Below are positions 2,110-64,000 of a stretch of 64,000 nucleotides of DNA, piece after piece (position 1 is the first letter of the stretch; the number at the start of each line of letters is the position of its first letter). Below the pieces are notes generated by a model. The model was not told where the DNA came from. It ran no database searches and saw only the letters and a list, made by a program, of their open reading frames with translations. Both the position numbers and the translations under genes were made by a program. This DNA comes from Heptranchias perlo (Eukaryota). The stretch is from contig NC_090353.1 of the NCBI RefSeq assembly GCF_035084215.1, positions 16,988,001 through 17,052,000 on the forward strand, read 5' to 3'.

Positions 2110-4975
2110 AACAGGTGCAGATATTAGGTGGGATCAGATTAAGAGAGAATACGAGAAGGTCTAAGATAGGTTTAGAGTGCATGAAAGTAATTGCACAAAG
2201 TGTGGTAAATAAGGTTGATGAGCTGCAGGCATAAATAGCCACGTGGGAATATGATGTAGTGACGACAATGGAGACCTGGCTCAAAACAGGGCAGGATTGG
2301 GTACTAAATATTCCTGGATACAAGGTGTTCAGGAAAGATAGGGAAGGCAAAAAAGGAGGGTGGGAGTGGCAATATTGATTAAGGAGAATATTGCAGTGCT
2401 GGAGAGAGAGGATGTCTTTGAGGGGTCAAGGACAGAATCTATTTGGTTAGAGTTAAGAAACAATAGAGGTGCCATTTCACTACTGGGTGTATTCTAAAGG
2501 TCACCAACTAGTGGGAAGGATATGGTGGAGCAAATGTGCAGGGACATTACAGAGAGGTGCAAGAATTATAGAGTAGTGATAATGGGGGACTTCAACTATC
2601 CTAATATAGACTGGGATAGCAACAGTGTAAAGGGTAAGAGGGGGAGGAATTTCTGAAGTGTGTTCAGGAAAACTTTCTTGATCAGTATGTGTCTGGCCCA
2701 ACAAGGAAGGAGGCATTGCTGGATCTAGTTCTGGGGAATGAAGTGGAGTAAGTGAGGGAACATTTAGGGAACAATGATCATGGTATCATAAAATTTAGAT
2801 TTGTTATGGAAAAGGACAAGGAGCAATGTAGAGTAAAAATACTTAATTGGAGGGGGGGCCAATTTCAGTGGGTTGAGAACGGATCTGGCCCAGATAAATT
2901 GGAATCAAAGGTTGGCAAGCAAAACTGTAATCGAACAATGGGCGGCCTTTAAAGAGGAGACGGTTCGGCTACAGTCTAGGTACATTCCCCTGAGGGGGAA
3001 AGGTAGGGCGACCAAGCCAGAGCTCCCTGGATGACGAAAGAGATAGAGTAAGATGAAGCAGAAAAAGGGAGCATATGACAGATGTCAGGTTGATAATACA
3101 AGTGAGAACCAGGCTGAATATAGAAAGTACAGAGGAGAAATGAAAAAGGAAATAAGAGGGGCAAAGGGAGAGTATGAGAATAGACGGCAGCTAACATAAA
3201 AGGGAATCCAAAAGTCTTCTATAGGCATATAAATAGCAACGGGTAGTAAGAGGAGGGGTGGAGCTGATTGGGGACCAAAAAGGAGATCTATGCATGGAGG
3301 CAGAGGGCGTAGCTGAAGTACTAAATGAGTATGTTGCATCTGTCTTTACCAAGGAAGAAGATGCTGCCAAAGTCACAGTGAAATAGGAGGTAGTTGAGAT
3401 ACTGGATGGGCTAAAATTTGATAAAGAGGAGGTACTAGAAGTTAGATAGGTCACCCATGGGATGGGATGCATCCTAGGTTGCTGATGGAAGAAAGGGTGG
3501 AAATTGCAGTGGTGCTGGCCATAATCTTCCAATCCTCCTTAGATATGGGGGTGCTGTCAGAGGACTGGAGAATTGCAAGTATTACACCCTTGTTCAAAAA
3601 AGGGTGTAAGAATAAACCTGGCAACTACAAGCCAGTCAGTTTAACCTCGGTGGTGGGGAAGCTTTTAGAAATGATAATCCGGGACAAAAATAATAGTCAC
3701 TTGGACAAGTGTAGATTAATAAAGGAAAGCCAGCACGGATTTGTTAAGGGCAAATTGTGTTTGACTAACTTGATTGAGTGTTTTGATGAAGTAATAGAGA
3801 GGGTTGATGAGGGCAATGCAGTTGATGTATATATGGACTTTCAAAAGGTGTTTGATAAAGTGCCACATAATAGGCCTGTCAGCAAAATTGAAGCCCATGG
3901 AATAAAAGGGGCAATGGCAGCATGGATACAAAATTAGCTAAGTGACAGGAAGCAGAGAGTAGTGGTGAACGGTTGTTTTTCGGACTGGAGGAAGGTATAC
4001 AGTGGTGTTCCCCAGGGGTCAGTACTAGAACCACTGCTATTTTTGATATATATTAATGACTTGGACTTGGATGTACAGGGTGCAATTTCAAAATTTGCAG
4101 ATGACACAAGACTTGGAAGTGTAGTAAACAGTGGGGAGGATAATAATAGACTTCAAGAGGACAAAGACAGGCTGGTGGAATGGGCAGACACATGGCAGAT
4201 GAAATGTAATGCAGATAAGTGGGAAATGATACATTTTGGCAGGATGAATAAGGAGAGGCAATATAAACAATTCTAAAGGGGGCACAGGAACAGAGAGACC
4301 TGGGGATATATGTGCACAAATCTTTGAAGGTGGCAGGACAGGTTGAGAAAGCAGATAAAAAAGCATACAGGATCCTGGGCTTTATAAATAGAGGCATAGA
4401 GTACAAAAGCAAGGAAGTTATGTTAAACCTTTATAAAACACTGGTTCGGTCACAACTGAAGTAGTGTGTCCAATTCTGGGCACCGCACTTTGGGAAGGAT
4501 GAGAAGGCCTTAGAGAGGGTGCAGAAAAGATTTACTAGAAATGGTTCCAGGGATGAGAGACTTCAGGTACGTGGCTAGACTGGGGTTGATCTCCTTAGAG
4601 CAGAAAAGGTTAAGAGGAGATTTGATAGAAGTGTTCAAAATCATGACTGGTTTAGATAAAATAAATAAAGCGAAACTGTTCCCATTGGTGGAAAGTTCGA
4701 AAACCAGAGGAGACAGATTTAAGGTGATTGGCAAAAGAACCAAAGGCGATATGAGGAAAAACTTTTTTACGCAGCGAGTAGTTATGATCTGGAATTCGCT
4801 GCCTGAAAGGGTGGTGGAAGCAGATTCAATCGTGGCTTTCAAAAAGGAATTGCATAAATACTCGAAGGGAAAAAATTAGCAGGACTAGAGGGAAAGAGCG
4901 GGGGAATGGGGCTAGCTGGATTGCTCTTGCAAAGAACCGGCACGAGCTTGATGGGCCGAATGGCCTCCTTCTGTA
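2110..4975 (+). mobile_element. CR1 LINE, decayed ORF2 (APE endonuclease + reverse transcriptase)
   Basis: Fragmented ORFs with CR1 motifs: WRIASITPLFKKG, PVSLTSVVGK, QHGFVKGK, GVPQGSVL, KFADD, RLRGDLIEVFK, NFFTQRVV; many stops and frameshifts. Confidence 0.92.
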
Positions 4976-4977
4976 AT

Positions 4978-5640
4978 AAAAGAAAATGCTGAAAAAGCTC
5001 AGCAAGTCAGGCAGCATCTGTGGAGAAAGAAACAGTTAACGTTTCAGGTCGAAGACCTTTCGTCAGAACTGGAAGGTGTTAGAGTTAAAATTTTTAAGCA
5101 AGTACAGAGCCAGGGAAGTGGTGGTGGGGAGGACAGGAAAGAACAAAAGGGAAGGTCAGTGATAGGGTAGAGGACAAAAGTGATGGTGCACGGTAAGGAG
5201 GGTAGTAATGGGACAAGTTAAGAAATAAAAGATTGGTCTAGAGGAGCTGTAAATGGCAACAGCGGAACCACAACCAGCAGCTGCAGTCCAACATAAATAA
5301 ATAAATGGGAGCAGTGGTTATGGACTGAAGTTATTGAAATTAACGTTGAGTCCGGAAGGTTGTAAAGTGCCTAAACGAAAGATGAGGTGCTGTTCCTTGA
5401 GCTTCATTGGAAGTATGAGGTCGAGGACAGAGCGGTCAAAGTTGTAGTGGGATGGAGAATTAAAATGACAGCCAGCCAGCAGGTCAGGGTTACGCTTGCG
5501 GACTGAGCGGAGGTGCTCAGCAAAGCGATCACCCAATCTGTGTTTGGTCTCCCCAATGTAGAGGAGACCGCATTGTGAGCAGCGAATACAGTATACTAAA
5601 CTGAAAGTACAAGTAAACCGCTGTTTCACTTGGAAGGAGT
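4978..5640 (-). mobile_element. Penelope-like retroelement fragment (GIY-YIG endonuclease end + pLTR)
   Basis: ORF 5318-5629(-) LVYCIRCSQCGLLYIGETKHRLGDRFAEH...LQPSGLN matches a PLE GIY-YIG domain; hammerhead motif in its 3' part. Confidence 0.85.
5033..5071 (-). ncRNA. Minimal type I hammerhead ribozyme motif (Penelope-associated)
   Basis: Minus strand cagtt-CTGACGA-a-aggtc ttc gacct-GAAA-cg-TT-aactg: helix I cagtt/aactg, helix II aggtc/gacct, palindromic helix III AACGTT. Confidence 0.7.
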
Positions 5641-6049
5641 GGCTCCTTCTGCGCTGTAACCATTTTATGATGTAGTCTGCATTTGATGTGATTGATTGTG
5701 TGGCACAAGTGATGCACGTCTTTTTTAAAAAGGCGACAGATTACAAATCACTAAGAATTAAACTTGAGTGAATGAATGATTTAAAAACATTAATTGCAGT
5801 TGGTTGCGAATTGTGTTTACTCCGCGTACAGGAGAGGAAGATTGTGATTTCAGCTTTTGTATTTTTAATAAATCAAAACAAACGCTGTTTGCCAGGGGTG
5901 AATGCTTCACAGTCTAGTTTTTAAAAAGGAAAAAAGTGGCAGCGAGAGGGTGTAGCTAGTGACATTTTTATGTTTAGTTTTCTTCCTATGAAATAATTGG
6001 TTCGTCTCTTGTTAATGATTTCGCCTCCTGTTCTAATTGACTGTGAATC

Positions 6050-6590
6050 CCTAGACGCTTCGCTCAATCTGTTGCGGTTTCTCGTGCGCGCCAAAATTTA
6101 AAAATCGCGCTTTCGGTTGCTCCGCTGCCCGAGGGGCGTGGCCACACGATTGACGGTTAACTGCTACCACGCGGGCCAATCCGCGCCGCTGGCGGGCAAC
6201 AAATTAGGCGCTGGCCCCCGCGTGAAGCACGCTGGGGGTTGTAGTCTGCCTGGTCTGGGCCTCATTGCCGCAAAATATAAACTTCAACTGCCAAAGAAAT
6301 TTGAAATAACTCAATGTACCAAGGCATCGAAGCGCGTCTTGCTCCGAGGAGACCGGTTATTCATGTCCTGAGAAACGTTCAAAAAGGCGGGATTAATAGG
6401 ACTACAGTTCCCGGCATGCAGTGTCTTTTTCCTCGTCGAGGTCCACATGATAGCGGCGCCATTTTCTAGTCCATTGAATAAAAGGGGATTGGCAGCGCGG
6501 CTACTAGCTGATCTGTACGGGCCTGAATTATTATTAAAAAAAAAGTTAATTATCGGCAATTTGTAGGGGAGAAAAAAAAAGTTTGTTGCC
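6050..6590 (+). promoter_or_regulatory. LMNB2 CpG-island promoter / 5' UTR
   Basis: CpG-dense; E2F-type TTTGGCGCGC (6086-6095, -), CCAAT ~6176, ZNF143-type ACTACAnnnCCCRGCRTGC at 6227-6245(-) and 6401-6419(+), CHR TTTGAA ~6300, YY1-type CGCCATTTT ~6457. Confidence 0.75.
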
Positions 6591-6940
6591 ATGGCAGCTA
6601 CTCCGGCTCAGAAGCAGACCCGAGCCAGTGCGGCCCAAACGCCTCTGAGTCCGACCCGGATCACCCGGCTTCAAGAGAAAGAAGATCTGAAGCACCTCAA
6701 CGACCGCCTGGCCGTCTACATCGACAAGGTGCGCTCTCTGGAGTGCGAGAATAGCGTCCTGCAGCTCAAGATCTCCGAGAAGGAAGAAGTAACGACCCGT
6801 GAGCTGACCGGCATCAAGTCTATTTACGAGACGGAACTGGCGGATACTAGGAGGCTGCTGGACGAGACGGCCCGGGAAAAGGCGAAGCTGCAGATCGACC
6901 TGGGCAAGAGCAAGACGGAGCTGGACGAGCTCAGCAAAAA
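6591..6940 (+). CDS. LMNB2: LMNB2 exon 1 (head, coil 1A, start of coil 1B)
   Basis: gccATGg start; MAATPAQ...ELDELSK; donor AA|gtaaag, phase 2. Confidence 0.95.
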
Positions 6941-9900
6941 GTAAAGTAGTATTTGCAGTACAAACCTTACCCGGAGCTTGTCTAATTATCTGATGTAGTA
7001 ATGTAAAAATTGTGTCCCTTTCCACGTGTTTCCCTTGCACCGTTTGTGAGGCTGAGTTGTCATTCTACATAAATTGTAACTGCTTTATGGGGGAGGGGTA
7101 ATTGATGAGTCTTTGTACTTGTAAAAGCTATTTAATGTGTATATATAAGATACAATTGATTAGGAATTCCCTTGCTATTATCAGTTTGCAACTTATTTAT
7201 TTAAAGATTTTTGAGAATCAGCTGTTAGAAAAGTATTTACCGTTAGCATTGATAGTTTGTATTTGAAATCCCTCTTTTCCTATAAACAACAACAACAACT
7301 TGGATTTATATAGCGCCTTAACGTCCCACGGCGCTTCACAGGAGTGTTATCAAACAAAATTTGACACATTCTACATTACAAGTCTATTCCTTTTCCCCCC
7401 GTCCTGATTTGTACTGTAATCACCAGTTAGCTCTGTGATTGGTTTACCAGTTACCTATGTAAATTGTTACAAACAATATTTGGCTTGAGTTTTATGAATT
7501 GCGTGAGTTGTGGGTAATACTTTGGTATTCTATCTTTTCAAAATCAAAACATAGTTGCTATTGACCAAGAATTTGCATTTGTTGAAGTGAATGACAAATG
7601 TTACTCATTGCCCTGAGCAGTGTATTTGCACTTTTGTTTTGTGTAACTTCATTGTTCTGTCAAGAATTTAATATTTAAGATGTGTTATGTCACAGCATTT
7701 TGTGAATGAGTTGAAAAACTGAACTAAGTTTCAGCTTTTAACCTGATGCAACCCTAACAGAAGTTAATTTAAATAAATAAGGTCATTAGAAATTTATTTG
7801 CATGCCAGAAATTCGAGACAATATTAGTGGTTTTTAAAATAAAGATTTACTAAAGTTGGTCTGCAGCACGACCTAAGCATTCTGGAATGGAAAATGAGTG
7901 AGTGGTGTACAGTAGCGTGTCAGGATAAATGTGCGGGAGAAATGATAGATTGCAGTGCTCTGGTGTACCAGTGGCTACAGCAGCGTGTATAAATTGTAAA
8001 AGCAAAATACTACAGATGCTGGAAATCTGAAATAAAAACATAAAATGCTGGAAACTTCTCTCCACAGATGCTGCCTGCCCTGAGTGTTTGTATAAGTTTT
8101 AGGCTTGTTCCAACACTTTAACTAGTGGGGTGGGGGGTTGTTTGGGAACAGGGTGTCTGGCCAACATTTTGTTCAGTTGTAGTTATTTCTAAGACCTCCA
8201 TAGAGTGGGGAAGTAATAATCAGTGCTTGCATGCCTTTTTTTCCAACGCTGCTCATGTTTTGTTGTCAACAGTAATCTCTGTGCAAATTTGAAACCACTT
8301 GAGTGTAATCTTTGCTCAGTAAACTTTCTAGCACTTAGAATTTGGTGGCGAAGCGTACAGCATCACACGTTGTACTCAATCCCACACAATGGGAACATAG
8401 CCAGTTATTTCTGGAATGTAATAGTAATGCTGTAAAATATTTGCAGAATACTGTATTTCTCCTTTTAGGATGCAGACTAAACTATTTAAACAGATTTTTA
8501 ATGCATATTACTACTAGAGGATTCAGCATTTTTGTATCTTTCCCTTCCTCACCTACTTAGAACCCTGAAGCAGATTCCTAAAGTGCTGGTCACTGCTTTT
8601 GTGGTGCAATTTTCTTCAAGCCATGATCAGTTGATTAAGAGTTAAGCAAGTTAAAGTGAGAATTCTTGAGACTTTTTTTTGCTTTATTTGAAGGTGGTAA
8701 TTGGGACTACAGCGCAGGAACACTCTTCAGTCAAAAGTCCATTCTTTGCCAAACCTGGGCAATGGACATCGGCAGGTTGTGGGTGGTGGGCAAAGGTTGA
8801 TACCGTAGATAGAAAGAAGACAAAATTATGATACTTTGTCAATGAAAACCACGTGAGTTGTTCTGGCTGGGGATTTTTTTCCCTTATGCAATCAGTTGCC
8901 TTTTTGATATCCAATTTCCTTTATTTGCATTTCTCATGCTAAAATATAAATATTAGGGGTTGGAAGAGAACCGATCTATCCCCATGCATCTTTTGTGTTG
9001 TGTGTACACAATTTCTCCTATTAATGTCTGAAGGTAGTTACTGATAAAGAAAATTTTGATAATTGGGGAATTTTCCTGTTAAGATTTATTCATAAACCTC
9101 ATTCAATTTTAGTTCCTGCTTTAATGCGCTCTAAGTGGCACTGCAGAATTATAGCATCTAGGATTCATGTTCATTTACTTAACAGTGAGTTCCTGATTTG
9201 AAATGTGTAGATGGCAGGTCTTTCCCTACATGAGAAGGAAAAGTTTGTGCACCTACTTGTGTCTGGTTAAGCAATGAACTCTGGAAACACTTTCTCCAGC
9301 AGTGAGATTGGGTGTGAAATGGACTGTAAAGTCAATGCCCCAGCCTGATGACGAGAATGCTTCTGAGCACTTGAATCATGAATGGCATGCCCCTCACCCA
9401 GCTGATTTCCCTTTTTAAGGATGGATAGAATTGTCTGCGATTCTGTTTTTGGTCCTGCCTCCTAGGGAGGTGGTGGGCTTGAGGCCTGGTGTTTAGAATT
9501 AGAAGAACCCACTTGGGCTGCTCTTCTCTAATATTTGGATTCAGAGCAGCCCTGGCCCTCTTGGACAGTAAGATGCTGGAAGCCTACAGACAAAAATGTA
9601 AATGCATTATCAAAAATTCTACTAAAAACAGCTTAAAATAGAACATGATTGATGTGGTTTAGTGGGAATGATTATAGACTCAAAACCTAATGAATGTGCA
9701 GGTGTCGTAGGCAATGGGAGAGCTGTAAGACTGACTTGTGTGGTTCATATTTATGTTGTGTATTTTTATAGATGGTAATATTTTCAAATATTCGCTTGGT
9801 TCTGCTTCATGATTTCCACTGGCAACCTGAAGATAATGAATCACACTGAGATGGGTTTTTGGGGTGTGGGGAAAAACCAGAGAGCCATCAAACATGCAGT

Positions 9901-12900
9901 ATTGTCTTTGCAAATTATGCAACAAAAAGGTTAAACCATAGTCAAATCTGATTCTGTATGTTCAGAGATAATCAATACCTGCTGCTGCTTATTTGTTTTT
10001 CCTTCTACATGGAGATGCCAAGGCTAATCACGTCTCTGGCCATCCTGGTTGCAATTCTGGGATCTTTTATATTTGCTTTTGTAATTTCAGTGGCAGGGGA
10101 GTGAACCAGTTCCCTGCGCCTGCATTGCTAAAGCTGTGTTTCCTTTTGTCTTAATAGCAAAGTTACAAGTTGCATGAAAATGTGCGTCTGTTGTTAGAAT
10201 AAGGCAGATGGTTTTATTAATGTAAATATAGGAGCTACTGGGCAGACATGGCTCCTGTGATCTGATCTGAACTGAAAAAGCACCAAATCTAAATGCTTAA
10301 ATCCTATCTGTAGTGAATGAAAGCATTCACTACAGATGGGAACCTTCCTTGCTTGGCAATGTACTGCACTGTATGGTACAGATCCTATTGAACCAGCCCA
10401 GTAGCTCTTGGCATCTTTTTAATATCCTGATGTATAGCTCCCTGCCGTGCAGAAGTAAAGTTTTGAGTAAAGATGATGCAAGCAGGCAGTGTGTGCTTGA
10501 ATTGCTAGTGCAGTAGTTTCATAACTGCTGGTACATAACTACTGTACTCAAGTGAGGAGGCTTGAGGGACGTTCTGTATGGATGGTTGTAATTGGCTGCT
10601 GTTGGAAGCATAAATGTTCAATTTTGAACTGCTTAAAAACACCTTTGTTATTAGGTGGTATGAACAAGCTGCTTCATCTGGTATTCCAACTAAATCGCCC
10701 TAATCAACATCCTTGAATGGCTTATGTCATTTGGGTGCTGGGTGATTTGAAATTGTCAAGATTTTGATTTCAATTTTTGTTAAGTATGGATTTCAAGGGA
10801 TATAGAGCAAAGATAGGTAACTGGAGTTGAAGTACAGATCAGCTGATTGAATGGCCCACTTCTTTCCTATGAGAGTGGAGTTGCCAACGTCCAGTAGCTG
10901 TACTTTTAATGCACTGACAATTATTGGGTTACTACCATAGTCCCTCTATTGAAGGTCCATAAACGATATAATCACTAAGATAAGTGAAATTTTATTTCGT
11001 AATATCCATTGAATAAAATTTTATAGAATCCAGGCTTGCTCATCACCCTCGCGTCCCACGGTTAAGCTTGGTGCTTTGTGTGGTATCTGCCCTCAAAATG
11101 CCGTAGTGAAAATTACATCGCCATTTTATCTGGTTCAGTTGGCGATGCACGCACGTCTGTTCTCTGTCTGAATAATACGATTCCGATTTGAACAGTATAG
11201 GAATAGCAATCCCATTTATTGAGAGATCTGGTAATATCGTTTACTTGAGCCAGGTTCAATCAAAACTACTTGATTTCTGTTGATTCTTTTGCCACAGATC
11301 TGGGCGACTACCATTTTTATATATATATATATAAAGTAAACCCATCACTTGATTTGACACGCCCCTCCCCCACTCCCAAAGGAGCAGTGCTGGCAGTGAT
11401 CTTAATGTACATGTATTATCGACGCCCTAATCCTCTTTGTGCTCCAGACCTAACGCTGAATAACGAATGATGACGCCCAATGTTTCCGCGCTGGATAGAA
11501 CAATAAATATGGAGAGGAATGAAACGAGAATTTCAGGGAACATATTCGAGTTCACCTACTGAACAGTCTGCAAATTGACTGAGATTGATCGAGTTAGCGA
11601 GCTAAATTCACAAGGACGTTGATGGGGCTTGAGCATAAGTGTAGATCTTTGCTAGTTTTATGTACGGATACTGCGATGTCCTTAAAAATTTCCGCTGCAC
11701 TTATCGGACCCAGTTTAATATTTTTGAAACGTTGGTTACCGTGTATACAAGACTCAGATGGGTAGGGTAGACAGAAAATTAAAAGAATAAATTTGCAGTA
11801 TCTTCCTGCTTAAAACATTCATTTTACAATTCGAAAATAGCCTCAAATGTGGATTAAAATCCATTCCCTTTTGAACGATGAGATTACTATAACTTTAATG
11901 TCTTCAGTCTGCTTCAATGCAACGACTTGACTGGTTTGTGTTCGTGGTTATGTTGTTGGGCAGATCACGCTATTACAGGAAACGCAGTGAAACTGAGCTC
12001 ATTCTTGCGTTTCCGGCTTTTTTTTTGGATCATATTCGGGAGGGAAAGGGGTGTCTTCGTTACAGAACTTTAGCTTTTTAAATCGTTACTCTGCATGCGT
12101 ATTTGCCGTGACTAGCTTTTTAAAAAAATGTCGGATCATAGCTGAGCCTAGTGCTTTTCTAGCTACTTAATTTGAATTGGAATCCGAAGCACGTTTACTT
12201 CGTTCAACAACCATGTACAAAAATTTGGAATTTTTTTTACGGGCTTTAGGGACTAGCCAATGAGGAGCTGCATTGGGTTTCCTGCCGTTATTTGCCTTTC
12301 TGGTAAGGGGGGTGGGTCCTGTTCTTAACGCATTGCTGGGACTGGACGGTTTGAATGCGAAGGGCGGCTGCAGGCTGATTCAAATCCTATCTTGTTTAGA
12401 TTGGTGTCCAATTTCCTTAAGTTCCAACAACATAAATATGGTCACGATTCAGTTGCAAAATTAGTGCAGTAGAGTGGGTCTGCCCTAACGATGCTTTGGG
12501 TTTTCTGAAATCCAAGCAGACTGTTGCTTTCAAAGGGGAAAATGGAATAAAAACGGACAATACTGGAAAAACACAGCAGATCACTTCGCATCTGTTAAAA
12601 ATGCAAGTCGCGATGTAGTTGTTGATAGTGGTTCTGCAGGCAAAGCAGAGGTAATTCTTTGGATGTCAGCTCAGATCTTGCACAATGCCTAGCACTAACT
12701 ATCCCTGTATCTCCAAAATCACAACCCCTAAGTTTATACAATAGTTGTCCTACAACTACTTCATGGCTCTATTACTGACCCATGGCATAGCTTTCAGTCA
12801 ACAGTACAACTACACCACTCATGCTGGCCATTAATAGTATACAAACGATTGGGGGTACATGGGCACTGTTGGGAAAACTTGTCGTTGGCAAAAGGTGAGT

Positions 12901-15900
12901 AATGTGAACTTTGGGCAGGAAGTTGGTAATTGAAACGTCTTTTCAAAGTTAACATCAGAAATAAAACCGAAAATGTTGGAAACACTCAGCAGGTCGGGCA
13001 GCATCTGTAAAGGAAGGAAAAAGGTTAGGTAAATATTTCAGGTTTATCATAACTATGCAGTTTGTCACTACTGGTGAGCTTCCTACTGCATGTAAAGGTA
13101 GGACCACCCTAACTGTTGTGGCATTGCCAGGTTCTTGTGAAGCTGACTTTCCCCTTTAGACTATTCAGTGCTAGATTGATGTAGACCAGAGCCTACCTTC
13201 TCTGCAGCCACTTCCCTTCACAGCTTGGAAGTCCTAGGCATACAATAGAAGGACTTCCTCCAGCCTATCTTGCAATCAGGTGCTGGATTTCACACACTGG
13301 CTGGAGGAGGCCTCTTCATTGCATGCCGAGGAGTTAATCATGAAGGAGAACTGTTTGGATACGTATTTTGTCTGTTACAAGTTTAACCTATGTTGGGACG
13401 CTGTTAGCAAAGAAAAATGAGAGCAAAGTGCCCATGACCCCGAATTACTACTTTGAGAGAGTGACTTTTGGTACGCAAAGGAGGGAATTAAAAAGGTGGA
13501 TGGGTGTTCTATTCTTTAATGTTCAAGTCTTGCACATAACCAACACTAATTTCCCCCCTTTCCTCATTCCCGTAAAACCGATCAAAGAAACCACACACAA
13601 TGCTGTGGTCCTGTTTTGTTTCCTGTTGGTTTGTTCTTTTGTTTAAAATGGATTCCTGGAAATTTGTCTCTGTTTTGGATGGGGGGGGGTGTTGGTAGGA
13701 GGTTAAAAGTATAATCTTCCTTTGTTAAATCTTTGCTTCATGTGATTTTTGTGAATTTTTATTGTACAAACAGATGTTATAAAGTGTGAAACCACTGTTA
13801 AACCAGACAAGCACTTGTCAGACATTGCTGTTACGAATCATTTGTAACCAAGGACTTGTTCAGTTTTAATAGAATCATAGAAAGGTTACAGCACAGAAGC
13901 GCGACTCTATGCAAGAGCAATCCAGGCTTCGTCGAAGGTGGTGGTTGCCTAAAAGGAGTTGAGGAGTGATCTGAGGACACTCCTGCAGTCTGTTTTCTGA
14001 GCTTGGGCAATGGGGAGAAAAATAACAATTCAACTTTCACAATGCAGTTACGGTACAATGGTGGATTCTGATGTTGAAATCCAAATTCTAGGATCCCAAA
14101 TCATTTATGTGACAAAATAGATTTTTTGTGTGTGCGCGTTAAATGAGTACGGCTGCTGTTCATAGCAGATAGAACATCATAAATCACTTAAATCTGTGCA
14201 CCCACTGAATTAACAAAGCTTTAAAGTGTTCATCCCAGATTGGCTGCCAGAAACCCTACATCCTTCAAGATTTGCTAAGCGATGTAAAGTTGGTTTTGTT
14301 TCAGACTCCGATCTAAGTGGGGAATTCAGTGGCTAAGCTTAAATTATTAATTGTGAATTTGGGATCCTAGCTTGGCTCAGTGATAGCACTTTCACCTCCT
14401 TGAATAAGAAGGTTGTGTATTCAAGCCCCACTACAGGGTTTAAGCACATAATCTAAGCTGATCACTGAAGTACAATGGGGGTTCTGCATTGTCTGATGTG
14501 CCATCAGATGAACGGATACCGCGCAACAATCGCCAGACAGGGGGGTTCCCTCCCAGTCGGGGAACACTTCAGCAGTCAAGGACATTCAGCCACCGGTCTT
14601 CGAGTAAGCCTTCTCCAAGGCGGCCTTCGAGACACACGACAACGCAAAATCGTCGAGCAGAAATTGATAGCCAAGTTCCGCACCCATGAGGACGGCCTCA
14701 ACCAGGATCTTGGGTTCATGTCACGCTACATGTAACCCCACCAGCGAAAAAAGAGTTATCTGTTTTTAATACAACTGGTCATTCTCTCTCTTTCTCTTCC
14801 TTTCGGATGTCTCTGTGTCTCTGTCTCTGTCTTCGGACCGTTTGTATATTCAGTAGTCCTGTATGTACTGTCTCTCTGTCTGATTGCCTTGACAACGGGC
14901 AGTTGGAAAGATTATCTGTAATCACCAGGCATTGTTCTCTGACTATATATGCGGTAACCTTCAAGGAATCACACACTCACCTGACGAAGGAGAAAGCCTC
15001 CGAAAGCTTGTGATTTTCAAATAAAACTGTTGGACTATGGTGTTGTAAGATTCCTTACATTTGTCCACCCCAGTCCATCACCGGCATATCCACATCATCT
15101 TTCAGATCAGCTCGGATGTTGAACTTTTGCTAATTTGAGTGGATGTTAAAGATTCCCTGCCACTATTTGAAGAGCTGAGTCCTGGCCAACAGTTTTCTTT
15201 CACAACTTCATTGTTTTTGTGGGACCTCTACTTAACAAAAATGGTGACTACACTTTTAAAAGTATTGTGGTTGAGCAGTGCTTTGGGACATGAAACGCTG
15301 CTATATAAATGCAAATAGAATGGGTATGCTGGTGTTTCTGGTGTGATGGGGGAATGGAGTGGGTTGGTGCTTAGGGTATAGATGTCTCCCCATCCCCGGT
15401 TGGAAGACTGTTGCCGATGTGTCAACGTGCACATTTTTTCTTCCAGGCTTCTGGGTCGCTAATCCTTTGCATGTTTTTATGCTCCCCAGTCTACTTGTCT
15501 GTTCCCTTTTAGCTCATCACACTTTTTGTCTCGTATAGATCTTTATTTCTTTGATTCCTCTTATACGCAGGAGACAAAAAGGAGGCATAATATCATTTAG
15601 CCATTTTCTAACCATAGCAATTTACCAAGTCATTCTATTTCTTGTGTGTGGTTTTGTTTTTCTCCTCGTCCCCATTTCCTTTGCTGTTTTGTAGTATCTT
15701 TTGAGTTCTGAGAAAGGGTCTGTACCTGAAACTTCACCTGATCTGTGTTCTCTGGACAGAAGCCGCCGGACCTGAGTGTGTCTAGAGCTTTTTTTTGACT
15801 TTCAGCATCTCCAGTATTTTTTGTGTTCATAAATGCAATTTTTTTTTTGCTCTCTTTCGTTCATGGTGCCAATGCATGGTTGTAGCTGTACTTGAGATTG

Positions 15901-18900
15901 AATGTGGAGTGGCTTTTACCTGGTAACAACTGAGTACTGCTCTGTAATCTATTTTATCTAACAGCAGACGTTATTAAAACTATGTGGTAGAAGGCCAAAA
16001 AAAACTCCTTTCCCTTCCTCCCAATATTGCTAATTCCTTTTTAAATCTAATATTTTGTTGAAAGTAGGTTCACTGTGGCAATTTTTTTTTTCCATGGATA
16101 ACCAGAGGACTGATCAGAAAGCAATTCTAGTCTTGGCTTGCGGTATATGCACTTTGTGGCTGTTACTGATATCTAGTGGTCCCTATAATATACACACCTA
16201 AGATCCTTTTCTGCAAGTTATAGAAACATTGCAATCTGGATATTAAAAGCCAGGCTTCAGTACCTTGCTTGTAATAAAAGCTGTCTTTGTTTTCCAAACT
16301 CTTATACGTTTTTACAAAACTGCATTTTACTGTAGCTTCTAATACTTCAGGCATGACACTTTTAATCTAATTTCTGGACAAGGGTATGTAATCAAGGAAG
16401 TGGTAATTACTTTTGTGAATGAGCTAGTATTGCAAGATCCTACTTCAGGAAATGTTGCTCGTATGATCGCTTATGGAAGAAACCAGTATAACATCAGGTT
16501 CATCCTATTTTTTAAAGTTTCAAAATTCATACTTTCCCTTCACACTTGCCATATCTGCACCAATTTGTGAATTTCTAAGGTGAATGATTTTTTTAAATTA
16601 CACTGTATTCTTGTCCTTTCTATAGAGAGGATAAAATATTCCTTTAAATATGAGTAGAAGTGACTGGCGTTCTTAAATTAATGGTTAATTAAAGACTGCA
16701 TGTAGTAGTTGCTGGTTGGGAATTTGTTGCAAGCCCCATTGAAGGTGAGTAAGAGGGGGCTATTATGTCTGAGAAGAAATGAATGTTCTGGCAATCTTTG
16801 GTCATGTAGTTGCTTTGCAACTTGCTAAAGTGTAGTTATTATAATTTCCTCTGAATTTGCTTAAATCATGTTTACATAAATATGGATTTGACTGTATTTG
16901 AATCTTTCTTTAAAGCTTGGATGTGAGGCTGTTTATTGCTCGTCATCAAAGCCATTGTCATCCAGATTGAGGCAATGAAACACTTGATTACTATTTAGAT
17001 TATTAAAACTTGCTTGTTTTGCTTTTGCAGTTACAAGAAGAAAGATAACGACTTGATATCAGCTCAGGCTCGGTTGAAAGATTTTGAACTGACCTATCAT
17101 AAAAATGAAGCTGCACTTAACACTGCTCTCAGTGAAAACCGCCTTATGGAAGCAGAGATGGCTGACCTGCGTTCACAGCTTGCTAAGGTAAAGCACTTGA
17201 GTCACCTGGGCTTATCTGGAGAGGAGAAACTGGCTGAAGAGGGATACTCTTCTGTTCGGAAGTGCTAAGTATATCATGGAGTGGGAGATAGAATCTGAAT
17301 TCTGCGGACTTTTCTGTTGCACCTTTCAGCTGTTGATCAGCTGTTCTATTTTTTTGGATGTTTAACTTTAACATTCTTTGTAAATAGTATGATGCTACTA
17401 AGAAAAGATGGGAGTGATTGTCAGCTATTTAAAGTGCGGCATGAGATTATCTCTTCATTTGCTAACCCATCTGATTAATGCTTGGTATTTATCCTGTTAG
17501 ATGTTTGGTAGAGGATTTTATGGACTGTTAGTGTTGTAAGGAGTCTAAGGATTGTTTCTCTAATTTTCTCTTTACCTGGTCCTCCTGAAAGTAATGACAC
17601 ATATGGAGTACCTCACCCAGGTGACCATTCTTCATGTGCAAGCCTATAATGTCAGTGAACTATTTAATTGTGGAGGAAAAAAATACATCTGAACCCAATC
17701 CAATTCTCATCTTGCGTCGACTTTCCAGTAAGGTTCCCTAGATAGTGTTTGAGAGGGTGCTCTGGCAGTAGAATTTAAAATTTTGTAGGCTTCTTGTTCC
17801 TAACCCAGGAACACTGAGGTCAGTTGTAGAACACTCCTTCTGCCCTATCTGAAATGGCTAACTCTACACAAAAGGATCACACTAGGGACGACTTATGTGT
17901 AGTACTTGAGAGAGCTGTGGATTTTTGAGTCTTTAACAACTGAACAAAAGTTAATTTTTGTAACTAATTTTAGGCTGAAAGTTCCCTGGCTGCCGCCAAA
18001 AAGCAGTTAGAAGAGGAGACGCTGATGCGAGTTGACCTGGAGAATCAGTGTCAAAGCTTAAAAGAGGAACTGGCGTTCAGGAAAAGTGTATTTGAAGAGG
18101 TATGATTGTTTGGAACTAACTCTTTAGATGTTGACTATTTCTTGGAATTTTCAAAGATATCCTTTTGAAATAATACATTCTGTAAATACAATTTAAGATT
18201 GGCATAGAATATTAACACTGTAGACTAATTATCCCTTTCTGGAGTAGGGGGCTATTCTCTCTACATCAGGAGGAATTTCCCCATCCTATCTCTAGATGAG
18301 AATTCTACCCATGAATTCTCCAGGACACTGGAAATTTTAATACCTCTTGTTGCAAATTTGGAAGCTTAAATCCTTCCTCACTTGTTTAATCTCCATACTA
18401 AGATTTGCTATGCCCTCAACATGCAGTTGCTTTGGTCATTGAATGCCTATCCTAGCTTGGTATGGTATGTAGAAGAAAGTTGAAAAATAATTAAAATACT
18501 GAAATGTTACAACTGGTCAATGAAGCTCACACTGTAACAGTATGCATATTGTATAATGTCCTTTAAAACAAAAATCCCAATTGAATTCTTGTATTCTGTA
18601 ATAGCCCTTCATTTCAAGGTACTGTACAAATTAATACAAACCCAAATATGATAGTGGCATCCTTTTTAATGTAGGAAGTGCGTGAGACTAAGAAGAAACA
18701 AGAACGACGCATAGTCGAGGTGGACACTGGGCGAAGGGTTGACTACGAATCCAAACTGGCGCAGGCCCTGCAGGACCTGCGAAAGCAACATGAGGAGCAA
18801 GTGAAACAGTACAAGGATGACTTGGAGCTAACATTCCAAGCCAAGGTAACTGAACTTATTCACCCAAACACACTTGTGAATGTTAGTCATTTCTAACTTG

Positions 18901-24900: not shown

Positions 24901-27900
24901 TCTACAAGTTCACTCCTAAATACACTCTGAAGGCTGGGCAGGAAGTCAAAGTGAGTTACGTATAATGCAATATAAATTCTACTTTCTAAGTACAGTGATG
25001 TTGACCTCCTTTGCAATTGTATTATTATTGATCTAAAATGTGTGGGTGTGGTGTGAATCACAGCTGAATTTTGTACTGTGGGCTGCTAGGAGAAAACTTT
25101 ATTCCCAGCACTTTGAGAATGTAAGTGCGATCACCCTCTTTCTGTGAACTTAGATTATTTAAAAAGAGCATCTTTTGAACCTCTGAGCATTTCTTAAACC
25201 TAGCTTGACCCTCGACTGGAGTTTGTCAACATGCTGTTTAAACGAAGTGAGATAGCTTTGCCAAGGGGGTTTTGCAACACTGTTCGGAGTTAGATCAGGA
25301 CTTACTCTGGAGTTGCGATGTCATTTCTGTGTTGCTCCGGAGTGGTGATAACTGCAGCAGTGCTAAAATGCACCCTTTAAATTGTTTCTACTGTGTAGTT
25401 GAATATTGGGGTTGATGAAAAGCAACCGAAGTTGAGGCTACCACACTAGAGCAGTAGAGGGGTGGAGGCATTGTCACCCAGCTGCACTTGCATACTTTCC
25501 AGCAACTGCAGCAGAGTGGAGTTTGGGAGTGACTTGCTTGCTCAACTGAAAATCTTGCTGTTTGGGGAGATAGTGGGATGAAAGTATCACCAATAACTGG
25601 CCGGTTTAACTTTTTGGGTGCTTTTCAGTACAAAAGGAAAGTTGCAACACTGTTTCTGTTGAATGCTCTAAATGAAGGCTTGGCTTGTTTCAGGAGGATG
25701 AGATTAAATCACTATCTTAAACCAGTGCAGAAGTTCTGTCCTTAAATTATTAAACTTGGTGGGGGGAAGGTTATTTTGCTCTGAATTTTTTTTGTTTTGT
25801 TTGTCTAGATCTGGAGTGCAGATGCTGGTAAAGCCCATAGTCCCCCTACTGACCTTCTGTGGAAGAATCAGAGCTGGGGCACAGGCGATGAGATTAAGAC
25901 TGTCCTCGTCAACTCTGATGGAGAGGTATGGTTTATCTGCACTTTTTCTATTGGTTGTGCATTCTGAAATGGTGAAATTTCACATGGCTAAATTTTCCCC
26001 TATTGCAGGAAAGTTGTGTTCTTGAGGAATCTGCAGTATGAAGTAAATATCTAGTTTGACCCAGAACTGAGCTTTAGACCATATCCACTGCATTGCAAAG
26101 ATCACTTGCTCATTCACTTCCATCTCTGCAATGCCCCCTTCCACCCTTATGCTGCTGATACCTTTATATACATGCATTTGTTCCCTATTGACTCAACTAC
26201 ACCAACATTTTCCTTGCTGGCCTTCCATCTACCACCCTCCGTAAATTTGTAACTGACCCAAAACTCGGCTGTGCTTATCATGTTCTACTTGTCTATCACC
26301 TCAGTTGTCGCTGACCTGACTTGCATTGACTTCCCATCCCCTTTAAAAACCACCTCATCTTGAAATCTCTCCATGGCCTCGATCTACCCAATCTGTGGCA
26401 ATCTATTCTAGTCCTATATCCTTCCACACCCCCTCAAAAAAAAACTCTGACTCCTCCAGGCTCTTGTGCACCCTCCGCACCACCATTTTGCGGCAGTGTG
26501 TTCATGTGCCTGGGTCCTGCTCTCTGCAATTCCCTTAATCAACTCTCTCTGCATCTGTGTGTGTCTGTCTAAATTTTTGGTTGCCTTTCCTAATCTCACT
26601 TTAGGCACGTGGAAAATGGATGCTGAGCCAATCTGTGAAGGCATTATATAAATGGAAGCTACAACACAGGACTAATGCATGCTAAACAGCAGAAGCAACA
26701 TGCTATGGAATTGCTTAGCTCTGTCTACAACCAATAGATCATATCAAAGCTTTGCAGTCCTGCCACATCCAGTCGTGAATGGTGGTGGACAATTAAACAA
26801 CTAACGGGAGGAGGAGGCTCTGTAAACATCCCCATCCTCAATGATTACAGAGCCCAGCACGTGAGTGCAAAAGACAAGGCTGAAACGTTTGCAATCATCT
26901 TCAGCCAGAAGTGCCGAGTAGATGATCCATCTCTGCCTCCTCCCGATATCCCCACCATCACAGAAGCCAGTCTTCAGCCAATTCGATTCACTCCATGTGA
27001 TATCAAGAAACGGCTGAGTGCACTGGATACAACAAAGGCTATGGGCCCCGATAACATCCCGGCTGTAGTGCTGAAGACTTGTGCTCCAGAACTAGCCGCG
27101 CCTCTAGCCAAACTGTTCCAGTACAGCTACAACACTGGCACATACCTGACAATGTGGAAAATTGCCCAGGTATGTCCTGTCCACAAAAAGCAGGACAAAT
27201 CCAATCTGGCCAATTACCGCCCCATCAGTCTACTCTCAATCATCAGCAAAGTGATGGAAGGTGGTGTTGACACCTTCCATCACTTTGGCACTTACTCACC
27301 AATAACCTCACCGATGCTCAGTTTGGGTTCCGCCAGGACCACTGCTCCAGACCTCATTACAGTCTTGGTCCAAAAATGGACAAAAGAGCTGAATTCCAGA
27401 GGTGAGGTGAGAGTGACTGCCCTTGACATCAAGGCAGCATTTGACCGAGTGTGGCACCAAGGAGCCATAGTAAAATTGAAGTTAATGGGAATCAGGCGGA
27501 AAACTCTCCTGTGGCTGGAGTCATACCTAGCACAAAGGAAGATGGTAGTGGTTGTTGGAGGCCAGTCATCTCAGCCCCAGGACATTGCTGCATGAGTTCC
27601 TCAGGGCGGTGTCCTAGGCCCAACCATCTTCAGTTGCTTCATCAATGACCTTCCCTCCATCATAAGGACAGAAATGGGGATGTTTGCTGATGATTGCACA
27701 GTGTTCAGTTCTACTCGCAACCCCTCGGATAATGAAGCAGTCCAAGCCCGCTTGCAGTAAGCCCTGAACAACATCCAAGCTTGGGCTAATAAGTGGCAAT
27801 TAACGTTCGTGCCAGGCAATGACCATCTCCAACAAGAGAGCGTCTAACCACTTCCCCATGACGTTCAATTACATTACCACTGCCAAATCCCCCACCATCA

Positions 27901-30900
27901 ACATCCTGGGGGTCACCATTGACCAGAAACTTAACTGGACCAGCCACATAAATATTGTGGCTACAAGAGCAGGTGGCGAGTGACTCACCTCCTGACTCCC
28001 CAAAGCCTTTCCTCCATCTACAAGGCACAAGTCAGGAGTGTGATGGAATACTCTCCACTTGCCTGGATGTGTGCAGCTCCAACAACACTCAAGAAGCTCG
28101 ACACCACCCAGGACAAAGCTTGATTGGTACCCCATCCACCACCCTAAACATTCACTTCCTTTACTACAGAATGCACTGCAGCAACTCGCCAAGGCTTCTT
28201 CGACAGCACCTCCTAAATCCGTGCCTTCTACCACCTAGAAGGACAAGGGCAGCAGGCACATGGGAACAACACCTGCACATTCCCTCCAAGTCACACACCA
28301 TCCAGACTTGGAAATATATTGCCGGTCCTTCATTGTCACTGGGTCAAAATCCTGGAACTCCCTTCCTAACAGCACTGTGGGAGAACCTTCACCACACGGA
28401 CTGCAGTGGTTCAAGACGTTGGCTCACCACCACCTTCTCGAGGGCAATTAGGGATGGGAAATATATGCTGGCCTTGCCAGCAACGCCCACATCCCATGAA
28501 CAAATGTTTTTTTAAAATGGAAGTTCTAATGCTGGTGAATTTGACTGATTAGTCCTTGGCTCCATTGATCTCTTAGAATATGTGCAGCGTGTTTACACAC
28601 AATTGCAAACTGTGTTGGGCAGGAATTTCATAGCACTCCAGTTTCTGTTGCCGATACAAATGGGACATTAGCAACCCTTTTGAAGCAAGCAGCTCTTTGT
28701 GTGTGGCAGTGTGCACAGTAAATCTGAACTACGTGTTATGACTAAAGACACAGAAAATGAAAACTCTTTAAGCAGACATAAAACCTTAATAGCTTAATGT
28801 AATCTATTTTCCCCTTAATGGTTTTTTTTCGGTGGGAAGCAATGATGGAGGAGGATGACTTGTGTTGTAAATTGGTTAGCTGTTACCCACCCATGTGATG
28901 ACATTCATCAAGTGCCACCTTTTTATCCCTTACTGGCTTCCTTTTGAAAACTGCTAAGGGAACTATATATGTGCTCTAAAAATATTAACTTGCAATCCGA
29001 CTAGTGCAAGTATAGGTTTTAAGCATATTTCATGAGTTCCTGTTTAATTTTCAAATTAATATTCTCCTTTCATATGAATACATCTGTTTGTTGAGTACCC
29101 ACACTAATCCAGGAACTTATGACTATGTTCAGGGACTGTCGGTAAACTTTTGCACTAATTTGTCTTTCTTCAAGAAGGGACAGATTTGACCAGTTCCTGA
29201 GGAAGGATGGTATTGGGATGAATATAGGGTGGGGGCATTCATTTTATATTTGTTTAATGATGCTGCGTGGCTGCTCATGGAGTTTGCTTGATTGCCTTAT
29301 GGACTCCAGGAGAAATTTCCCAGAGTTTTTCCTGAAATTGGTGCCATTGTTTTTTGTCTACTCCAGGAATACTGATGGCTTGGGATAGTTGTGCATCCGT
29401 TTTTTAAAAAAAATCATTCTTGGGATATGGGTGTCACTAGCAAGACCAGGATGTATTGCCCATCCCTAGTTGCCTTTGGGAAAGTGGTGGTGAGCATTCT
29501 TCTTGAACCGCTGCAGTCCGTGTGGTGTAGGTACATCCACAATGCTCTTGGGTAGGGAACAGTGACAATGAAAAACCGCTAATACATGTCCAAGTCAGGA
29601 TGGTGTGTGACTTGGAGGTGATGGTGTTCCCAGGCACCTGCTGCCCTTGTCCTTCTAGGTGGTGGAGGTCAAGGGTTTGGGAGGTGCTGTTGAAGAAGCC
29701 TTAGCTAGTTGCTGCTGTGCATCCTATAGGTAGGATACTGTGCAGCCACGGTGTGCAAGTGATGGATGGGCTGCTGATCAAGCAGATTGCTTTGACCTGG
29801 ATGGCGAAGCTTTGTGGAGTCAGGAAGTGAACCACTCGCCACAGAATATCTAGCCTCTGGCCTGCTCTAGAAGCCATGGCATTTATGCGACCGGTCCAGT
29901 TGAGTTTTTGATCAATGATAACTCCCAGGATGTTGGGGGATTCGGCAATGGTAATGCCTGGCACTTGTGAGGCGCGAATGTTAGTTGCCGCTTATCAGCC
30001 CAAGCCTGGATGTTGTCCGGGTCTTGCTGCGGGCATGGCCTGCTTCATTATCTGAGCAATTGTGAATGGAGCTGAATGCTGCAATCATCAGCGAACAGCC
30101 CCCCTTATGATTAAGGGAAGATCATTGAAGAAGCAGCTGAAGAGAGTTGGTCCTAGGATGCTGCCCTAAGGATCTCCTGCAGTGATGTCCTGGGGATGCA
30201 CTGTCGATTGAACCATCTGGATCTGATGGGGTCCCTCCATCTGTGTTTTTTTCCCTTTTTTGTATGTTCATATGAACTGGATGATGCAGCAATGGACAGC
30301 TTGAGTTGAGTTCATTATTTCTGATCTGTTGCAGATATTTACAAATAGTTTTTAAAATATTCTTGACAATTGAAAAACAAAATATGAATGTAATGAGGCA
30401 TCCCAAATGTTTGTAACACTGTAAATATGTCTGCTTTTGCCACATTATATATTTGTGTTTATCTCTCATCCCTTTCAGAATATTGGCTGTGGTCAACTAC
30501 ATTGTATTGCTGATTTTTGGTTCAATTCGTACACAACTACAAAACATTTTAGTTTTGTAATTCCATCTAGTCCCTCTGAGTACTGTTTGCTTTGTCAGAG
30601 TGGAGGTTACTGGGCTTGCACCCTCTCTACTGGAGAGCAGGGGCAGTGAGTCCAGTTGGACTCTGTTAATTCCCTTGTGAACTCTTGGTCAGTTTATGGG
30701 CAGCATAGATACTCATTCAGCAGCAGGTTATTTGCCCGTGGTGCAGCTGGCAGTCAATTATGGAAACAGTTTTTAATATAGATACTATTTACACAATCAA
30801 CAGAATTATTCCAAAATGCACCCATGTTGGGTTATTGTATATTAGAATTAATCCAGAAGTCATTTTTAAGTTACTCTGTTTATTTTTTAGAAAAGCACTT

Positions 30901-49567: not shown

Positions 49568-61887
<12,320 letters not shown>

Positions 61888-61889
61888 TT

Positions 61890-62740
61890 TATCGTCGATG
61901 TAGGCGGCTTCCACCGAAGCAAAAACCTGCAACAACCGCAAAAACACCTCTTCCTTTTTTCGGCCCAGGCACAAGCCCAACCCCTACCGGACGACCGCCC
62001 ACCGTCTCTCTTACTGACTGACAGCTTGATTAACCAATAAGAGACTGGGATAGGTACAACAGACCATAGAAACTCTATCACTATGGCGACAAGACCCACC
62101 CTCCCGCACTGCGCTGCCTGACTGGGTGAAGTCATCCTGTCCGGACGCCATCCCGCCTTTCGCTGAATACTGTTTACTGATTGTTTACAAAAACTATCAA
62201 TCAAAATAAACGCCCGTCGCTGATTGCGTAATTTACTTGTCATTCAAAGTTATCATCCGTACACCCCTTTTCCGGCGCGGACTTTTTTTATTATTAAGGA
62301 GGAGGCTTGTACGTCTCGAGCGGTCGTGTTGTTGGAGAGATGGGCCGAATGAAACGCTGAACCAAGCCCCGGGGATCGTCCACCCAGTCATTCCGAGAGC
62401 GATAACTCTGAGGTAAAGAAAGACGAATCGAGCGAGTTTTTTTTTTAAATTATAAAATGTACAGCGACTCCCCCTCTCCTCACACGGTTTTGTGCGTCAT
62501 AATCCTGGTTATGGGAGCCTCTGTTGGTTTATTTTGTGGCTAAAATGTCTCCTCAAATGATAATTTAAACAGGCCCCGGAGTGAACTGTCACTCGGTCTG
62601 CAGCTGCGTGGAGTGTAAACATCAGCCTGACATTTCTGCAGGGACCCCGTGGCCCTGCTGTCACAGCTCGGAGGGAATTGGGCAAATCCTTCAATTCTTC
62701 GGATAACTCTCATAACCCCCCCCCCCCTCCGATTAATCTA
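61890..62740. promoter_or_regulatory. RAB11B CpG-island promoter, probably bidirectional
   Basis: CpG-rich; CCAAT ~62034, GC-boxes, TTCCGG ~62270; + strand splice donors at 62412|62413 and 62832|62833. Confidence 0.65.
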
Positions 62741-64000
62741 ACCAACACCTGAGTGATTTATTGCTGTTTTGGGGCAATTGTGTGTGTGTGTGCGTGTTTG
62801 TTGTGTGTGTCCCTGGAATAATATTGTTCCAGGTGAGTTGTCAAATGGTTCTGATAGCTTTGGTCCGCGATCAAGCTTGTTGGCGGTGACGACCAAATGG
62901 TATTGACGTGGTTCATTTTGGCTAAGTGAACCTAGACTAGTATCTCATGTTGGAAAGTCTTCCAATGGTGAGCTGTGATATCACTGTGACATAATCTTTG
63001 ACTGTACTATTTTGCATTGAGCACAGCAGTGGTGGTTGACCACTTCTGAGTTTAGATCTTCTGTCACCTCTTGTATTATTCATATCTGAACAGTCTCCTG
63101 TTCCCATAGGATCTTAACTTGGACAGGTACAGAATAGGAAGCATATTACAGAAGGAGTTGTTTCACTTCATTGCTTGTAGCTGGTTTTTCAAGCCAGCCT
63201 TGCTGGTGGAACTATAAATTCTAATTATAAAGCTGTCTGTATCTAGTAATATATTGTTGAAGTTTAGCTGAGGCTATTGACTGCTGCATTATCATTGAGA
63301 TACTTAACCCATTAAGTATGGGTTATCTGGATTATTTTCTGACCAGTAGGCAAAGGAATGATTTTAATCTGTCAGAAGTTGGAAATTGCACATACATTAT
63401 AACGTAATGTTCCATGATCTGTTGTTTCTCAAAATACTGTATGCGTAAAAGTATGTCAATAAAAATGTGTCCAATTAAAGAGGCATTGTAAGTTACTGCA
63501 GTCTTTGTTTTTCTTTTCCTTTTGAGACTACCATACCCATGTTCTAGGTTCCGTACTCTCATTAGTGTCCTGTTGCACAGTCTCCTTGCTCTGGGCAGGA
63601 AGGATGGTTTGAATTGTGGACTTCTCCCGGGTCTCTGGGAATACAGCTATGTAATTGGATGATGCGTTGGCATTGGTACTGGCAGTTTTTATTTATAAGT
63701 TTTCTTTAGATAAAGAATGTGGCTATTGTGAAAGTGTTGTGGAGAACTGATGAAATTTACTGAAAGCTAATGAATACTTGAATGGCCAAAGGACTTGAAC
63801 CTTGTGTCTGGCTGCTCTACATTCAGTCTTGCATCTACTGGATTGTTTCTTTAAATTCTACAGAAGAGATTTATTTTAATTTTTTTCTCTTCTCCCCTCC
63901 CCTCCCCCATCCCCCCCAAAAATCCTGCTGGCTACTAGTGGTTAATTGGATCCTTTTTGACTCACAGTAGGTAATATGAAACAATTATTCTGATCTTGGC

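Follow-up and report, generated by a model that had tools for sequence, protein, structure and literature searches.

A CpG-retaining stretch in intron 1 of shark LMNB2 is a candidate orphan non-methylated island

The first intron of the lamin B2 gene (LMNB2) of the shark Heptranchias perlo contains a stretch of 1.6 kb that has retained its CpGs, carries a lower TpG/CpA excess than its flanks, is unique in a DNA run and is spliced out of the main mRNA. We consider this stretch to be probably, though not securely, an orphan intragenic non-methylated island, which would likely act as an enhancer-like element or as a weak non-coding start. Methylated CpG decays to TpG/CpA, while escape from methylation keeps CpG near its expected frequency, and the best reading of our data is that the CpGs survived here through escape from germline methylation: germline methylation would probably have been absent from this host DNA over a long period. 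If it is an orphan island, it would belong to a very common class and have local significance as a candidate LMNB2 regulatory element, and GC-based island callers would overlook an island of this composition. All positions refer to the window, i.e. the whole stretch of 64,000 nucleotides that was analysed (contig NC_090353.1, positions 16,988,001 to 17,052,000), and the individual features are collected in Table 1.

Table 1. Features in and around the CpG-retaining stretch (window positions).
Feature	Position	Strand	Basis and remarks
Main LMNB2 promoter island and 5' UTR	5700..6590	+	CpG observed/expected 1.14, GC 45%; RNA contigs start at 6536 and 6572
LMNB2 exon 1, coding part	6591..6940	+	Protein identity; spliced RNA contigs
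Decayed repeat remnant just outside the left edge	10793..10855	+	72% identical to 52811-52880; contig pile-up of 749 in bin 10711-11111
CpG-undepleted island at background GC	10960..12620	.	Maximum-likelihood extent, 62 CpGs
Island core, unique, no known RNA or protein family	11112..12314	.	DNA-run depth at baseline; longest ORF 73 codons
SP/KLF-type GC box	11359..11372	-	GGGGCGT at 11359, GGGAGGG at 11363
Candidate promoter/enhancer core	12171..12412	.	Motif cluster of 5 CCAAT, 2 GC/KLF boxes and 3 TTTGAA
Candidate splice donor after 12302	12300..12308	+	Score 5.9 with an approximate matrix; under 8/9 U1 match; no ATG in frame with exon 2
Decayed piece of an abundant shark repeat, right edge	12550..12611	+	Copies at 4982 and 12969, identity 69-73%
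Candidate alternative exon end	12821..12900	+	Open over 24 codons from an ATG at 12821; the 9/9 U1 donor after 12894 keeps the frame of exon 2
LMNB2 exon 2	17031..17187	+	tblastn; spliced RNA contigs

The position within the gene is defined by protein and transcript evidence. The open reading frame of exon 1 shows 100% identity over 116 amino acids to the lamin-B2 protein of Heptranchias perlo (protein P0134) and shares 83-91% identity with the lamin-B2 proteins of other chondrichthyans. In all three sequencing runs that we guessed to be RNA, spliced contigs with GT..AG ends join 6940 to 17031 and continue to exon 3, and because of this junction the island can be placed within intron 1. The intron measures 10,090 bp, with the island 4.0 kb past the donor and 4.4 kb before the intron end, so that the location given in the initial annotation (about 4 kb inside LMNB2 intron 1) was borne out by both junction and protein identity. 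The gene comprises eleven coding exons and reaches to about 31.4 kb; 3.5 kb of DNA with a CpG observed/expected ratio (o/e) of 0.22 separate the island from the start-site island. Within exon 1, contigs of two other lamin-like transcripts, which probably derive from paralogues, cross-map to 6646-6818 in all four runs. Literature listings and abstracts, which left most subscription papers and supplements aside, contained no description of an island or promoter in intron 1 of LMNB2 in sharks and no shark-specific CpG decay rate.

The CpG excess itself is real. Between 11040 and 12620 we counted 60 CpGs at a GC content of 41%, corresponding to an o/e of 0.90, compared with 0.22 (7501-11030) and 0.29 (12621-14480) in the flanks, which are indeed as depleted as initially described, and 0.25 between 20 and 61 kb. 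A manual count had given about 50 CpGs for 11041-12400, where computation finds 54 at an o/e of 0.93. In line with reduced decay, the TpG/CpA ratios of 1.14/1.05 are lower than those of the flanks (1.38/1.25 and 1.27/1.31). At the o/e of the whole window (0.32), the CpG count of the island has a Poisson P of 5e-12, for a region picked post hoc and with about 40 windows of such size fitting into 64 kb. When windows of 1.6 kb are ranked by CpG, the island is surpassed solely by those over the main LMNB2 promoter, and its o/e of 0.9-1.3 across 1.2 kb approaches the value of that promoter. A two-state maximum-likelihood fit delimits the island as listed in Table 1, with an edge uncertainty of 200-300 bp (left 10840-11050, right 12370-12690).

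The initial annotation had also called the region AT-rich. Its GC content is low, but equal to that of its surroundings (39-41% in the flanks), so the island is best described as having background GC. Classical CpG islands are defined by a GC content over 50%, an o/e over 0.6 and a length over 200 bp, and the GC content here is lower, both overall and in 200-bp windows, which reach 47% at most. Besides, the context of the CpGs is AT-flanked, unlike that of the other two islands of the window: 19 of 62 CpGs lie in AACG/CGTT, compared with 2 of 50 in the main promoter and 2 of 56 in the island at 62 kb; the same context accounts for 72 of 449 background CpGs and 14 of 68 in the rest of intron 1. 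The GpC value is 1.14 in the island vs 1.45 in the main promoter. If words containing CG, TG or CA are left aside, the 4-mer profile is host-like, with a Kullback-Leibler (KL) value of 0.067 vs a median of 0.075 and with 64% of 125 windows further away from the host background. The island looks like ordinary intron sequence minus the CpG loss and unlike a housekeeping promoter. The island at 62 kb (61700-62900) has an o/e of 0.83, a GC content of 47.5% and a good splice donor at 62833, and probably represents a neighbouring gene's promoter; no Pfam match was obtained for the two long open reading frames that it contains.

These properties fit well with what is described for non-methylated DNA in vertebrates. 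In sharks, methylation pervades the genome and spares the start sites (PMC5437953). In zebrafish, non-methylated islands combine a high CpG o/e with background GC, as the shark island does, and tissue-specific islands are located away from start sites (PMC3583005). Orphans make up about half of CpG islands (PMC8286816), and vertebrate orphan or non-methylated islands resemble the shark island in being non-repetitive, rich in CpG by o/e and off an annotated start site (PMC3583005 and PMC8286816). Three features of orphan non-methylated islands can be tested in sequence, and all of them were found: a high o/e, a position apart from the start-site island and the lack of multiple copies. In contrast to measured non-methylated islands, the non-methylation of the shark island is inferred from sequence, and none of its 200-bp windows attains a GC content of 50%. 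The mechanism that we invoke, an o/e that rises with the time spent unmethylated in the germline, is the one reported for sperm hypomethylated regions, of which the older ones show a higher CpG o/e; those regions are defined by mammalian bisulfite data, the shark island by its sequence (PMC5793779). As for function, 46-57% of intergenic islands either serve as non-coding start sites, qualify as putative enhancers or show some other transcription (PMC3583005).

CpG retention alone is no proof of an unmethylated state, because young repeats of this genome keep their CpGs as well, with an o/e of 0.80 at 14507-15038 and 0.64 at 4500-4971, while older LINE pieces of the window fall to 0.25-0.41. 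A test for a young repeat was therefore required. At 80% likeness, the summed contig depth of one DNA run over 11112-12314 is 15, 14.7 and 17, compared with 14-20 in unique flanks and with 10^4-10^6 (3e4 to 1e6) in nearby repeat-bearing bins; such depth values do not translate into copy numbers, the run is possibly the source of the window itself, and copies less than 80% alike would escape. In addition, a single contig of 4,962 bp covers 8027-12988 with 0 differences and thereby crosses both island edges. At 80% likeness the core is without a pile-up of similar copies, which shows that it is not a young multi-copy transposon. Hence the main objection foreseen in the initial annotation does not apply to the core at this likeness; its further statement that a LINE/SINE signature is missing holds for the core only, since a decayed repeat fragment, presumably Penelope-like, sits at the right edge, and the lack of a long open reading frame was confirmed. 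The remnant outside the left edge is presumably the 3' end of a LINE-like element. Although the island shares CpG retention with the young LINE/Penelope-like repeats, it differs from them in the baseline depth of its core.

An unlikely source of the CpGs would be an inserted sequence of foreign or unmethylated origin, present once or in very few copies and fixed too recently for CpG decay; a rare non-autonomous element, a virus or horizontal transfer could have supplied it. The deviating CpG context and GpC value in comparison with the other two islands would suit such an origin, as would the o/e of 0.6-0.8 in young repeats, the repeat remnants at both edges and the fact that the core has no match in the rest of the window. 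On the other hand, no extra contigs appear at 80% likeness, the contig is unbroken over both edges, and the non-CpG 4-mer profile is that of the host. The edges share no word of at least 9 bp, direct or inverted, which speaks against terminal repeats and against target-site duplications of that length, shorter duplications being beyond the reach of this comparison. In Pfam, neither the 19 open reading frames of the island nor six read-through frames scored above cutoff, a weak negative because a repeat fragment used as control was missed as well. None of six frames was related to viral contigs, a search sensitive to close relatives only; blastn against phages and plasmids returned a single 28-bp chance match, and one 24-base pattern had 0 matches in metagenome contigs. 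Two other candidates were dismissed. For a structured non-coding RNA gene, nothing coherent came from Rfam and ARAGORN (no match in the island), folding (z of -2.5 or lower in 1 of 66 island folds vs 3 of 74 controls) or polymerase III box scans, and descent from a duplicated main promoter was rejected with a best match of 14 bp (E 0.37). A hairpin at 11976-12026 has a perfect 9-bp stem followed by nine T; one of eight windows gave it a fold z of -2.3, and it is unremarkable in a sliding scan.

With regard to motif content, the GC-box, TTCCGG, CCAAT/ATTGG and TTTGAA elements named initially are all present at the positions given. The clustering of promoter-type motifs that was read from them stands in part: the island does hold the richest CCAAT/GC-box/TTTGAA cluster of the window, but most motif counts are at chance. 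Scored against 500 dinucleotide shuffles, the island contains six CCAAT (4.5 in shuffles, P 0.30), one GGGCGG (0.3, P 0.26) and one CCGGAA (0.6, P 0.45), and CCGGAAG is absent from it. TTTGAA occurs seven times vs 2.7 (P 0.02 uncorrected, short of the family-wise threshold), a count reached in 0 of about 117 overlapping background windows. SP/KLF-like boxes number four vs 0.4 in shuffles, and 8% of these background windows have as many. MYB (three sites vs 2.6), E2F, NRF1, CRE and RFX motifs show no enrichment in the island; CTGC was the one 4-mer marginally over the family-wise threshold, and no 5- or 6-mer passed.

The densest part carries CCAAT at 12176, 12257, 12272, 12400 and 12408, GC/KLF boxes at 12310 and 12362, and TTTGAA at 12171, 12350 and 12379. 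Its segment 12241-12430 is the richest of five loci of the window where 180 bp contain at least three CCAAT plus a GC box; since the other four (at 2.8, 27.1, 43.3 and 60.9 kb) sit in CpG-poor DNA, such clusters also arise without an island. CCAAT/CHR promoters of the cell cycle repeat CCAAT at about 32 bp. The combination of CCAAT, GC boxes and TTTGAA within 240 bp resembles such G2/M promoters, but the spacing of CCAAT in the island is 81, 15, 128 and 8 bp in mixed orientation, with counts at or near chance. The main promoter holds three ZNF143-like and two E2F-like sites, whereas a single partial ZNF143-like word is all that the island offers, with E2F-, NRF1- and complete ZNF143-type sites absent. 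Two of the ZNF143/SBS-like elements of the main promoter are in opposite orientation (6234-6245 and 6401-6412), and its E2F-like sites are at 6088 and 6265.

For the orphan island that we favour, SP/KLF- and NF-Y-type factors bound at 11359 and in 12171-12412 might hold the DNA open and exclude de novo methylation, and the target would be the LMNB2 promoter 4-5 kb upstream. It is rather improbable that the same patch, long-lived or recently abandoned, is unmethylated in the germline without a present regulatory role, either as a by-product of germline chromatin or as a former element in which CpG decay is just starting. Motifs mostly at chance and the removal of the island from the main mRNA in three of three RNA runs are compatible with such a patch, and mammalian regions that recently lost sperm hypomethylation keep a raised CpG o/e (PMC5793779). 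However, an o/e that nears the main promoter over 1.2 kb implies long protection, and about half of the non-promoter islands of mouse and zebrafish carry regulatory marks or transcription (PMC3583005).

The initial annotation had proposed a second promoter or strong enhancer, for which we obtained no positive support: the motifs are mostly at chance, the mRNA splices across the island and isoform N-termini map elsewhere. In the RNA contigs, the junction 6940-17031 is the only one of its kind among the 15 listed of 258, none of which leads from the island to exon 2; contigs drop rare forms, and the tissues are not on record. Contig cover of 11112-12314 is zero in the three runs guessed to be RNA, and no RNA run was among those listed for 11000-12700; neither result is evidence of silence, and RNA depth at 12315-12715 and 10711-11111 coincides with repeat fragments. 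Using an approximate matrix, four of the five strong plus-strand donors of intron 1 fall within 12302-13097; this clustering in or near the island is not robust, as a second scoring by plain U1 match reduced it to one of four. The donor after 12894 matches U1 at 9/9 positions and is one of two such donors on the plus strand of intron 1, its coding potential resting on a frame check; by our estimate, an in-frame ATG is expected for about one in 4-5 random donors. The other perfect donor (16742-16750) lies 286 bp before exon 2 and has an in-frame stop upstream.

RefSeq models of lamin-B2 that lack exon 1 are found in 5 of the 15 listed members (of 22) of a shark cluster, namely forms of 468 and 390 amino acids in Carcharodon and Cetorhinus and of 496 amino acids in Stegostoma; in a search with exons 2-3, no further shark or ray cluster without exon 1 was among the best 120 of 430 matches. 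The 390-residue forms begin at the methionine of exon 3, in agreement with an alternative 5' exon that does not code. The N-terminus of the lamniform 468-residue forms (P0124, P0126) corresponds to 15326-15345 with 22 of 24 bases (0 of 300 shuffles as good), in a repeat-laden bin; in Heptranchias perlo this frame stops after six codons, and the segment is possibly a repeat that was exonised in lamniform sharks. For the N-terminus of the Stegostoma form (P0129), the best position is about 14025-14082 in unique intron DNA, a weak match (2 of 300 shuffles) that is sensitive to parameters, with 0-41 of 100 shuffles as good across nine settings; a query with residues 1-44 of this isoform gave no match. 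The unique N-termini of the lamniform and Stegostoma isoforms have no significant match in the island, and a placement of the latter at 11013 (24 of 30 by eye) was dropped when gapped scoring gave the island no significance. Protein records are silent on transcript starts, so an intronic promoter may lie upstream of those isoform exons.

In this context, we regard it as rather improbable that the island is an internal promoter, probably restricted to germline or embryo, whose transcript runs to exon 2 and encodes a lamin B2 without the head and the first part of the rod. Such a product could arise via the in-frame exon 12821-12894, or via a non-coding first exon leading to the methionine of exon 3. 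The motif cluster upstream of the 9/9 donor with its in-frame ATG and the exon-1-less models of other sharks would agree with an internal start. Set against this, the isoform N-termini map to 15326-15345 and about 14025-14082 and never significantly to the island, the donor clustering was lost under the second score, the lamin-B2 record of H. perlo carries no isoform label, and in the RNA contigs exon 1 continues directly into exon 2 over the island; moreover, the short models could equally be cassette exons or 5'-incomplete alignments.

The start of mammalian lamin B3 lies in a later intron (intron 4), and a form from shark intron 1 would therefore be independent of it. Host gene and outcome would be shared, as an internal start removes the N-terminal part in either case: in mammals, an alternative promoter gives rise to lamin B3, which has no N-terminal domain (PMC6008938), while lamin LIII/B3 of fish and amphibians is a separate gene (PMC4680568). 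That the island is a shark-conserved germline promoter for headless lamin B2, as an independent parallel to mammalian lamin B3, is equally improbable; if true, mammals and sharks would each have drawn on LMNB2 for a rod-truncated lamin, a second use of this gene.

Two further structures were noted in the window. Within an LMNB2 intron, 27669-30109 consists of imperfect inverted LINE-like copies spanning about 2.4 kb, with arms that are 77-86% complementary. A near-perfect palindrome at 55735-55926 is composed of two 95-bp arms that show 99% complementarity and are separated by 2 bp, and is related to the repeat end at 14974-15098.
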